A stretch of 62,357 bases of DNA, filler included, from an uncultured Methanosarcinales archaeon (GTDB lineage Archaea > Nanobdellota > Nanobdellia > Woesearchaeales > CAYZNE01), in assembly GCA_964405295.1 (NCBI GenBank). It is 4 parts of 4 records of this genome, joined end to end, with 100 filler letters (N's around TTAATTAATTAA, not from the genome) between each part and the next. Parts side by side here need not be neighbours in the genome. Positions count along the whole stretch, not along the records: positions 1 to 20,514 come from CAYONI010000009.1; 3 more parts are not named here. One strand, 5' to 3'. The position numbers were made by a program. Positions within the stretch are counted from its first letter, which is position 1, and each line of letters begins with the position of its first letter. Below are positions 12,001-15,000 of the stretch, piece after piece.

Positions 12001-15000
12001 AATTTGTTGTTTCTAGTTTTCCAGGAATCGGAAGCACTTTAAATTTACCATTACTTAAATATTTTAATTCTTTGAAAGAAATTGTGAATGCTGATGAAAA
12101 AGAATTAATGAAAATTGATCTTGTTGGCAAAATAAAAGCAAAAAGACTTTTTGAATTGTTCAATACAAAGTATTGAATGACTAATAGTTTGCTATTGTAT
12201 TTATTTAATAATAAATATAGCTAAAATAATAGATAACACTGTTATCCTCTTAAATCATACATAAACTATATAAATACCTCTAATTTCTGTGAATAAATAA
12301 TAATAATAAGTATATATTTGGAGGGTTATTATGGAAGATAAAGAAGATAAAGAACTAAAAGATCATATTGTACATAAAGAGCATAAATCTGTGCATCATG
12401 ATCATGATGCTAGATCTCACAAATCTCACGAGATAAAGCACAGAATTACCAAAAGATTAAGAAGAGCAAAAAATGAGAGAATAGTATTTATTTCATTAAT
12501 TGTTATTTTGGTAGTATTGTGTATTGTTGCTTGGGCAGCAAAAGCAAATTATTCAAATTTAGACAATAATATTGATTCTTTAAATAAACTCTATGTAAAC
12601 ACTGATTCAACTGAAGCTAAAGCTGCAATAAATCAGGCTATAGCTAGTTTAGAATCTGCAAAAGTATTGTTAGGTGAAGTAACTACAACTACAGGAACAA
12701 CTACAAATTTACCAACTGGTGGTTTACAAGCTATTATTTTAAATGATATTAGGTGTAAGCAATGTGATGTTACTGGTCTTAAAACAAGTTTACAACAAGT
12801 TTTCCCAACTATTGGATTTAGAGAGTTAGACTATGCAGATGATGAGGCTAAGCAAATAATGCAAGATACAGGAATAGCATTATTACCTGCGTTATTATTT
12901 ACTAGCGATATTAAAGATGAAGTAGGTTATGATCAAATTGCTAATTATATTACTGAAGTAGGCGATTACCTTGATTTAATGATAGGTTCAAGTTTTGATC
13001 CTATTGCAGAAATTTGTGATAACTCTGTTGATGATACTGGTAATGGTTTAGCTGATTGTGATGATCCAACTTGTTCAGAAACACTTGCATGTAGAGAACT
13101 AAAAGAAAATTATCTTTCAGTTTTTATAATGAGTGATTGTCCATATGGTAAAGAAGCAGTTAAAGCTCTGGCTCCAGTTATTGAAGCAATGCCTGATTTA
13201 GATTATGAAATAAATTATATTGTAACTGATAATGGTGATGGAACTTTCCGAAGTCTTCATGGAGATTATGAAGTAGAAGAAAATATCAGACAGTTGTGTG
13301 CATTAGAAGAAGGTCAAGATAAATTCTTTGCTTACGCGCTTTGTAGAAGCGAAAACGGTGTAAGGGATGTTGATTGGAATTCTTGTGCAGATGAAGCGGA
13401 TCTTGATAAAGATGCTTTAGAGACTTGTACAACTGGTGCAAGGGGAATTGAATTGTTACAAGAAAATGCTAAGATTGCCGTTGCTTTAGGAGTAACTGGA
13501 AGCCCAACTTGGTTAGCTAACAACAGATATAAATTCTCTGGTATTACTGCAGATGTTGTTCAAAACAATGTATGTACTTATAATCCTGATTTAACAGGTT
13601 GTGAGAATATTGTTACAAGCACAGCTTCAGTTCCAGCTGGTCAGTGTTAGTTTTTCTTTTTTTTCTTTTTTTATATTAATGAATTAGCCTTTCTCTGTGC
13701 ATTTCAAGTGATTTTAGCCTTATTTGATTCATTCTTGCTAAGTTTAGCTTTAACTATTGCACACCCAATACTGAAATCATAAGATTTATAAACAATAAAC
13801 CCCTCCTATATCTTGCTACAAAGCCCGACACGAGAGTAACCTTGTGGAGTTTACGGCATTAGCCAAGCAATGATGCTGGGAGTTAGTGACTCGGGCAATT
13901 TATTATCATAATATCAATCGACCTTAAGAACAGGTTATTATCACATTCATTATTCACTTATTATTAAAAAACATATTAGAAAAATTTAAACTTGTTCTAA
14001 AAAGGTTAGTTAGGGTTAGTAATAACTCAAGTAGCATTCAGAATTATAAATGAATGCTTAGAAATAGTATATTATTATCATTTATTCACTTATTATTGAG
14101 TGATTCATGTATGGGGTTATGGTGGATTATAATATAATTATTATATTGTAATTGTAAACTATTTTCCGAAACTATTTCTAAGTATTATTATAATTAATAT
14201 TAAATTAAATATATATGGTGGGAGAAAAAAATGGCAAAAATAGCACAAATATCTGCAAAATATATAATTCATGCAGAAACAAGTATTGAAGGAGTTGTAG
14301 ACAAACCAGATGTAATTGGCGCAGTATTTGGTCAAACAGAAGGTTTGCTTGGTTCAGATCTTGAATTGAGAGAATTACAAAAATCCGGTAGAATAGGAAG
14401 AATAGAAGTAAATTCTGAAACTGCAAATGGTAAAACAAAAGGTTCAATAATAATACCTTCATCTTTAGATAAGGCTGAAACTGCAATTGTTGCTGCTTCA
14501 TTAGAAATTATTCAAAGAATTGGCCCTTGTAACTCAGTTATTAAAGTTGTTAAAATTGAGGATATAAGAATTTCGAAAAGAAAATTTTTGATTGATAGAG
14601 CAAAACAATTACTTTCAACATTAATGAATGATGTATTGCCTGATTCACAAGAACTTAGTGATGAAGTTACTTCAAGTGTAAGAGTTATGGAAATAACTGA
14701 ATATGGAAAAGACAGATTACCTGCTGGACCAACAGTTGAAGAAAGTGACGAAGTTATTCTTGTTGAAGGAAGAGCTGATGTTCTTAATATGTTAAAACAT
14801 GGTTTTAAAAATGTTATAGCAATGAATGGCTCAAAGGTTCCACAAACAATAATTGATCTTTCAAAACATAAAACTATAATTGCATTTGTTGATGGGGACA
14901 GAGGTGGAGACTTAAATGTTTTAGAATTAACTCAAGTATCTGAAATTGATTTTGTAACAAAAGCACCTGATGGAAAAGAAGTTGAAGAATTAACTAAAAA

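Follow-up and report, generated by a model that had tools for sequence, protein, structure and literature searches.

Features of the gap upstream of dnaG

The DNA analysed here (the window) is a stretch of 62,357 nt from the genome assembly GCA_964405295.1 (the source genome, G000), which belongs to the order Woesearchaeales. A gap of 580 nt (13651-14230) separates a thioredoxin-fold gene with GILT/DsbA matches (12331-13650), at its upstream end, from dnaG (14231-15505, + strand), which encodes an archaeal DnaG of 424 aa with a TOPRIM domain (477.5 bits against a cut-off of 300). An earlier note had placed a hairpin RNA at 13802-13906 in this gap, and our analysis confirmed it, with a covariance model, R1, built for the purpose. 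The G+C-rich hairpin itself occupies 13823-13896, or 13823-13900 when the ACA-box position is included; this and all other features of the gap described below lie on the + strand.

Upstream of the hairpin, the TATA-like box TTTATAAA was found at 13785-13792, 30 nt ahead of the lower stem, as the earlier note had reported. Similar AT-rich boxes, judged by eye, precede the guide RNA in many relatives, and by its sequence TTTATAAA is the probable promoter of the guide RNA. A scan for sigma-70 promoters and for terminators, which does not cover archaeal signals, returned four promoter-like sites versus 4.1 expected by chance, and no terminator. Downstream of the hairpin lie two copies of a stem and UCAY-rich element, a candidate dnaG leader. 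The first (13927-13998), which begins 30 nt beyond the hairpin and is a structure distinct from it, combines AGAACAGG with CUUGUUCU in a long-range stem around a UCAY-rich single strand, and the second spans 14060-14179. A purine-rich, putative Shine-Dalgarno-like site for dnaG follows at 14217-14224; GGAGG-like sites are present ahead of dnaG in relatives too.

Conservation and paired structure of the hairpin

R1 was built from 17 relatives within the order Woesearchaeales alone, and of the 101 Woesearchaeales genomes searched with it 92 carried one match and no more, including 73 of the 77 high-quality ones, which bears out the claim of a single-copy motif. Seven of the nine genomes of the order without a hairpin match also had no dnaG match, so the locus is probably unassembled in these seven. 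The hairpin had been described as an order-wide motif, but it is not confined to the order: among 121 genomes taken from the phylum R1 matched 113, including 22 of the 28 that fall outside Woesearchaeales, and the motif is also present in other archaea, as described below. A BLAST search with the core found matches in 21 genomes out of 41, with the source genome counted in. An Rfam scan of 12000-16000 up to E 10 gave six weak matches and none over the motif, in agreement with the earlier statement that no Rfam family matches it.

The conserved paired structure was also upheld. Across 17 sequences, 94.4% of 339 cells were paired and six of 20 pairs had changed on both sides, while slid partners gave 21-43% paired; the pairs also hold against shuffles. 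Among 62 further matches 95.0% of 1216 cells were paired, but here the alignment was made by fitting to the model and is biased in its favour. The minimum-energy fold of the single sequence is a structure other than the H/ACA fold (-26.8 vs -19.5 kcal/mol) and is only weakly better than shuffles (z -1.66); folding of the single sequence is not informative here. The core is 96% identical between the source genome and its relative G001, whereas the flanks are 52-59% identical. The divergence of the flanks reported earlier is, however, only partial, as in G002 the 150 nt downstream of the hairpin are 96% identical to the source genome.

Box H/ACA anatomy of the hairpin

The hairpin consists of two stems, P1 and P2, separated by an internal loop, as in box H/ACA RNAs. 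The lower stem P1 pairs 13823-13831 with 13886-13896 (nine pairs and a 2-nt bulge). It is followed by the 5' pocket strand GAGAGU (13832-13837) and the upper stem P2 (13840-13846 with 13874-13880, seven positions, within 13840-13880). A K-turn (GA at 13847-13848, a 3-nt bulge at 13869-13871 and GA at 13872-13873) carries on its apical side a C-stem (13849-13851 with 13866-13868) and a small variable apical hairpin (13855-13864). The 3' pocket strand (A)GUUA lies at 13881-13885. The GA of the K-turn was present in 59 of 62 aligned matches on the 5' side and in all 62 on the 3' side, and seven P2 positions plus two G-A pairs are counted above the pocket in the source genome, in line with the rule of 9-10 positions. 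The archaeal H/ACA layout given in PMC7075261, with a K-turn or K-loop bearing tandem G-A pairs, is the same.

The tail and the distance to dnaG were counted in the 86 of 97 loci that could be parsed, with the 11 unparsed loci left out. One base after P1, 55 of the 86 loci have ACA, 25 have NCA, one has another ANA and five have something else. The source genome is among these five: its ACA-box position (13898-13900) reads AUU, as in G002, while G001 has ACA. Between the ACA position and the pocket base there are 16 nt, the same as in a Haloferax prahovense locus (L182). The target uridines of SL2, the second hairpin of the Haloferax volcanii guide sR-h45, are 17 and 19 from its ACA box (PMC7075261); by the same count the spacing here is 17 and 19, outside the general 15 +/- 1 rule and equal to that of SL2. 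In H. volcanii, changing ACA to UGU abolished both SL2 modifications (PMC7075261).

Complementarity and covariation with 23S helix 69

The earlier note had found no rRNA target for an H/ACA reading. Once a 4-nt gap was allowed, helix 69 of 23S rRNA emerged as the target; the previous search likely failed because the guide leaves four target bases unpaired where two are usual. In the source genome helix 69 (C1:608 and C25:6290) consists of UAAC, the loop bases UAUA and ACUCUC. GAGAGU is complementary to ACUCUC and (A)GUUA to UAAC(U), giving 6 + 4 (or 5) pairs around the loop. The assembly contains the 3' half of 23S and no 16S, and the rRNA target search covers that part alone. In the whole assembly eight sites match both pocket strands when 2-4 nt are left unpaired between them; a U as the first unpaired base is found only in the two 23S copies.

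A search pattern that combined P1 with the two guides found at least 120 loci, with titles naming haloarchaea, Methanosarcina, Methanobrevibacter, Undinarchaeales and Woesearchaeota. R1 matched 10 of 10 loci chosen from haloarchaea, methanogens and Undinarchaeales, at 32-50 bits, and in an alignment of nine sequences P1, GAG, UGA, GUUAGU and GGGC were invariant.

The guide tracks its target through three states, GAGGGU/ACCCUC, GAGAGU/ACUCUC and GAGAA(U)/AUUCUC. Helix 69 was ACUCUC in 18 of the 19 genomes from which it was recovered (41 searched). It was also recovered in 33 of the 50 genomes behind the pattern matches listed; among these matches ACCCUC accompanies all 25 GAGGGU guides and ACUCUC all 8 GAGAGU guides, under a collection pattern that admitted only A or G at the varying guide position. 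For the same class outside the order, helix 69 was obtained from 9 of 22 genomes with the guide. Eight of the nine have AUUCUC, all with a GAGAA guide (exactly GAGAAU in four), and G139 has ACUCUC with GAGAGU. An exception to the covariation is G040, in which AUUCUC faces GAGAGU with a G-U pair. Because the states follow whole lineages, they represent about two independent guide-target changes, and both go the predicted way.

H/ACA proteins and a partner hairpin in relatives

The source genome encodes Cbf5 (395 bits against an NCBIfam cut-off of 242), Nop10 (62.4 bits against a cut-off of 68, on a 51-residue piece) and an L7Ae-family protein (97.7 bits); the Pfam family matched by the last also takes in L30e. 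TruB_N was found in 95 of 101 genomes. Gar1 was detected by Pfam in 0 of 61 genomes, while the same search found it in three of four archaeal controls. In the source genome no Gar1 was found by Pfam, by a 3-sequence euryarchaeal profile, by tblastn or beside the TFB gene. Gar1 is either lost or too divergent to detect, and since Pfam matched only three of the four controls, a divergent Gar1 could have escaped the search.

In many relatives another H/ACA hairpin stands immediately 5' of the helix 69 guide. In the model for this partner hairpin (R2), 83.6% of 640 cells were paired and 18 of 20 pairs had changed on both sides. R2 matched in 43 of 101 genomes, always abutting the helix 69 guide, and gave no match in the source genome. 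In four loci from methanogens and Undinarchaeales R2 also matched the hairpin on the upstream side, where sR-h45 has SL1, the guide for the 2586 equivalent. In all 40 genomes of the order examined, rRNA position 2586 is C. In 29 of 32 genomes the partner hairpin can form at least 10 of the 12 pairs possible with the A-loop (10-12), and at the variable position 2560 the pairing is Watson-Crick in 31 of 32, including all five genomes without C there. This complementarity suggests that the partner hairpin has been retargeted to the A-loop from the 2586 equivalent, with a predicted site that we take to be U2554 or U2555 (E. coli loop numbering). Calculated from the numbering in PMC2377435, the site that had at one time been put forward for hairpin 2 of Afu4 corresponds to 2555, and the authors of that paper rejected it for Afu4 hairpin 2.

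Linkage to dnaG and a candidate leader element

dnaG lies 64-571 nt downstream of the hairpin on the same strand in 85 of the 86 parsed loci of the order, and it is linked in 21 of 22 loci of the same class outside the order. The claim that the motif is always upstream of dnaG therefore held for nearly all parsed loci, but in G078 the two are on different contigs, and G050, G124 and G130 have dnaG without the hairpin. Among the pattern matches listed, 80 of which were examined with long flanks, dnaG was in the flank of 24 of 24 GAGAGU loci and of 1 of 56 GAGGGU loci (1.2-kb flanks, shorter in eight). The link between guide and dnaG is thus near complete in Nanoarchaeia and mostly absent elsewhere. 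Two genomes titled Methanosarcinales (G201 and G224) have the guide about 1 kb upstream of dnaG, and because they keep it the neighbourhood may be old.

Between guide and dnaG we found a long-range stem, with a core of AGAACAAG and CUUGUUCU, in which UCAY repeats follow the 5' arm. A fixed test detected this element in 62 of 114 spacers, versus 0-5 in 15 shuffles, and in two copies in 11; a few of the 114 spacers (e.g. L219, L272) were cut at the wrong place. The same test passed 23 of 901 upstream regions of the source genome, that of dnaG included. The element was present before dnaG in 5 of 11 class members picked for an R1 miss or a guide located elsewhere, and in none of 10 other archaea, while at least three UCAY within 35 nt before dnaG were seen in 6 of these 10 against a background of 24 in 901. 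The element goes with dnaG and not with the guide, occurring also where there is no guide, and is the better candidate for dnaG control than the guide hairpin. We would guess that it is a site within the leader of dnaG to which a protein binds, with DnaG itself and KH-domain proteins as the first candidates. A reading as a DNA operator was rejected on three counts: the distance between the arms differs greatly from locus to locus, substitutions in the 5' arm preserve G-U pairing on the + strand, and none of the 114 spacers passes the test when reverse-complemented.

Interpretation

We consider it very probable that the hairpin is a box H/ACA pseudouridylation guide of the sR-h45 SL2 / Pab40 hairpin 3 family with helix 69 as its target. 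The basis of this reading is the anatomy, the complementarity, the covariation, the homology to known guides and the genes for Cbf5, Nop10 and an L7Ae-family protein; points against it include the AUU that G000 and G002 have where ACA is expected, the failure to find Gar1 and the different minimum-energy fold. Of the two readings that the earlier note had offered, the H/ACA one is accordingly retained and the cis-acting leader of dnaG is not. The gene would be expressed as a guide RNA, with a single hairpin in the source genome. L7Ae would sit on the K-turn, and Cbf5 and Nop10 on the stems. The pocket strands would clamp helix 69 on either side of U1915-A1916-U1917-A1918 (E. coli numbering), so that Cbf5 could convert U1915, and probably then U1917, to pseudouridine, as in H. 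volcanii sR-h45 SL2. For the uridines modified, we see an even chance that both U1915 and U1917 are; U1915 alone is a less probable outcome, and U1917 alone less probable still. The place before dnaG would reflect conserved gene order and perhaps a shared transcript.

The guide reading is compatible with a tentative extension, to which we give somewhat under an even chance, namely that the guide heads one transcript with dnaG. Excision at the U-rich stretch after the ACA position would free an mRNA with the stem and UCAY leader, and dnaG expression would thereby be tied to rRNA maturation. Such a transcript would fit the position of the stem and UCAY element, whose start is a median of 30 nt from the end of the lower stem (minimum 11), so that a second promoter could hardly be accommodated. 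Archaeal DnaG binds rRNA and enables exosome tailing of rRNA (PMC4227792), and two adjacent RNase PH genes are present. However, AT-rich boxes seen by eye right after the ACA position could be promoters in some genomes, and dnaG genes without the guide have a TATA-like box of their own ahead of the stem and UCAY element, so that dnaG can do without the guide.

A broader picture for Nanoarchaeia, more doubtful than the shared transcript, joins these elements: the guide would head the dnaG transcript; a protein-binding and undescribed UCAY leader would set DnaG levels; the particle would work without Gar1 and with a relaxed ACA; and the partner would have switched from U2586 to the A-loop when 2586 became C. 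If true, it would link rRNA modification to exosome-based rRNA surveillance.

It is rather unlikely that the family is an H/ACA guide whose copy in the source species is impaired or decaying, with the ACA box and the partner hairpin lost. AUU in both G000 and G002, the requirement of SL2 for ACA in H. volcanii (PMC7075261) and the partner hairpin missing from R2 matches in G000 would fit such decay, but the stems, the K-turn and both guides are all intact in G000, and the core has stayed 96% identical to that of G001 next to flanks of 52-59%. Many relatives likewise depart from ACA, so the lineage may rely less on it. We regard the ACA-less guide of the source genome as likely to be active.

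That the hairpin is instead a cis-acting leader or riboswitch controlling dnaG is highly improbable, even though a co-oriented dnaG follows in all but one of the 86 parsed loci of the order and dnaG is linked in all but one of the 22 from elsewhere in the class: it does not stay upstream of the same gene wherever found (1 of 56 GAGGGU loci among the matches listed; dnaG on another contig in four of five genomes checked, and in G078; a discrete sRNA between NEQ389 and NEQ392a in Nanoarchaeum equitans, PMC3491384), its loops covary with rRNA and not with dnaG, and its distance to the start codon varies over the 64-571 nt given above. The dnaG linkage is no part of the function of the helix 69 guide RNA.

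Comparison with known guides

The hairpin is not a new RNA class; it corresponds, in Nanoarchaeia, to a helix 69 guide that has been tested elsewhere. The earlier note had held that nothing of the kind was described; counterparts are, however, sR-h45 SL2, whose activity has been tested (PMC7075261), and hairpin 3 of Pab40, Pf7 and Afu4 (PMC2377435, PMC2584109). The shared P1, guide sequences and helix 69 target place the hairpin in this lineage. Literature searches covering few subscription papers gave, for Woesearchaeota guide RNA and DPANN Cbf5, no paper naming those taxa among the matches listed, and nothing related for a dnaG-linked sRNA or leader; the name sR-h45 occurs in two papers. The searches turned up no account of the A-loop partner hairpin with its covariation, of the lack of a detectable Gar1 in the order or of the structured element before archaeal dnaG.

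Like sR-h45 SL2 of H. volcanii, the hairpin has a lower stem with a 3' bulge, GAGRGU, GUUA, a K-turn and the same ACA spacing, and targets helix 69 with four bases left unpaired. SL2 is responsible for two pseudouridines of helix 69, 1940 and 1942, and needs its ACA box (PMC7075261); the primers in Table S1 of that paper give GAGGGT and GTTA as its guides and the same lower stem and tail. According to Grosjean et al., the haloarchaeal pair corresponds to E. coli 1915 and 1917, and the haloarchaeal hairpin is homologous to stem III of Pf7. Unlike SL2, whose GAGGGU recognises ACCCUC, the RNA described here has GAGAGU, complementary to ACUCUC, and A or G, which could pair with U1915, where SL2 has C before GUUA. 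It is also a single hairpin, stands before dnaG and, in the source genome, has AUU replacing ACA. Methanogen copies may already stand among the Haloferax hairpin homologues in Additional file 8 of PMC2584109.

In the literature, hairpin 3 of Pab40, Pf7 and Afu4 (RF00064, HgcG) is treated as homologous to the Haloferax hairpin, and pseudouridine 2016 of P. abyssi, which lies in helix 69, is assigned to it (PMC2377435, PMC2584109). Like the present hairpin it is a helix 69 guide, but those RNAs have three hairpins, and the 1915 equivalent is modified there and the 1917 equivalent is not. RF00064 gave weak matches over the motif in two relatives (L043, E 0.013, 21.7 bits; L097, E 0.04, 20.2 bits), below the gathering threshold of 77 bits, and no match in G000 itself; Rfam at its threshold thus misses the helix 69 guide hairpin.

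The H/ACA sRNA of N. equitans was seen as a discrete RNA by RNA-seq, with a coverage of 10,900 (PMC3491384). The 3' hairpin of that RNA shares the lower stem, both guides (GAGAGU and GUUA) and the ACA box; the RNA as a whole, however, has two hairpins and lies away from dnaG. The targets predicted for this hairpin were 23S U614 and 16S U796 (PMC3491384). By its identical guides it would target helix 69, and the published target is probably wrong.

In eukaryotes, the RNAs U19 of human and snR191 of yeast, both mentioned in PMC7075261 and PMC2584109, serve as guides for this pair of helix 69 pseudouridines; they use one hairpin per U, and are likened to the present guide by description, not by sequence. 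With the hairpin reported here, the use of a single guide hairpin for the pair of pseudouridines that is best conserved in rRNA extends from haloarchaea and methanogens to the small-genome Nanoarchaeia.

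A conserved element between the guide and dnaG

In members across the class Nanoarchaeia, dnaG was preceded by one or two copies of a conserved long-range stem enclosing UCAY repeats. In the window both copies lay on the + strand, the first at 13927-13998 and the second at 14060-14179. This element was also present before dnaG at loci without the predicted box H/ACA guide, and it is a candidate regulatory leader of dnaG. Literature searches for a dnaG-linked sRNA or leader yielded no description of it.

The guide was not found in two loci, L317 (genome G124) and L319 (G130), where a tRNA-like gene was followed by dnaG and the stem plus UCAY element was kept. 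In both genomes the loop of helix 69, the predicted target of the guide, read UAACUCUG. At a third locus, in G035, a degenerate hairpin with altered pocket strands was observed upstream of dnaG (L321:2375-2455, 32 bits), which may be a guide that has decayed or been retargeted.

Genomic context and related records

Gar1 was undetected by Pfam search in 61 genomes of the order Woesearchaeales despite near-universal Cbf5, and the H/ACA particle of this order possibly works without it. Among the matches listed, the GAGAGU form of the guide, with dnaG close downstream, also occurred in records titled Methanosarcinales, Alphaproteobacteria or Acidobacteriota (L088, L091, L092, L113, L126, L130, L137, L138, L141, L149, and L170); on such records these titles are probably wrong.

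Contig C9 covers only positions 1-20514 of the window, and from 20515 on further contigs follow, with N runs as joints. An ORF at 9221-9751 (+), interrupted by a 100-base N run, was rich in lysine and valine with repeated KKKV/KKKA tracts, a histone-H1-like composition.

23S rRNA and hairpins upstream of the guide

In 6 of 19 genomes (L025, L035, L036, L037, L038, and L040), the consensus match of 23S rRNA ended right after helix 69, the pattern that an rRNA intron inserted there would give. In the present genome (G000) the assembly holds two copies of the 3' half of 23S together with the DNA that follows it, C1:1-4454 and C25, representing either a duplicated contig or two operons. The closing pair of the A-loop (helix 92; C1:1227-1254 in G000) was G opposite A, not a Watson-Crick pair, in almost every Woesearchaeales genome listed.

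A partner H/ACA hairpin directly 5' of the guide was found in L043 (1425-1503) and 42 other genomes, and was not found in G000. As judged from sequence, it would pair with the 23S A-loop (U2554/U2555), and the two covary; position 2586, its ancestral target, was C. The partner position held other hairpins with different loop sequences in L061 (G078), L271 (G026), L237 (G017), L262 (G098), and L008 (G018), and these may be guides to other sites. L095 (G201) carried a third hairpin (1356-1422, -) 5' of partner and guide, with two small genes and then dnaG downstream. Such a layout resembles that of the three-hairpin archaeal H/ACA RNAs Pab40/Afu4.
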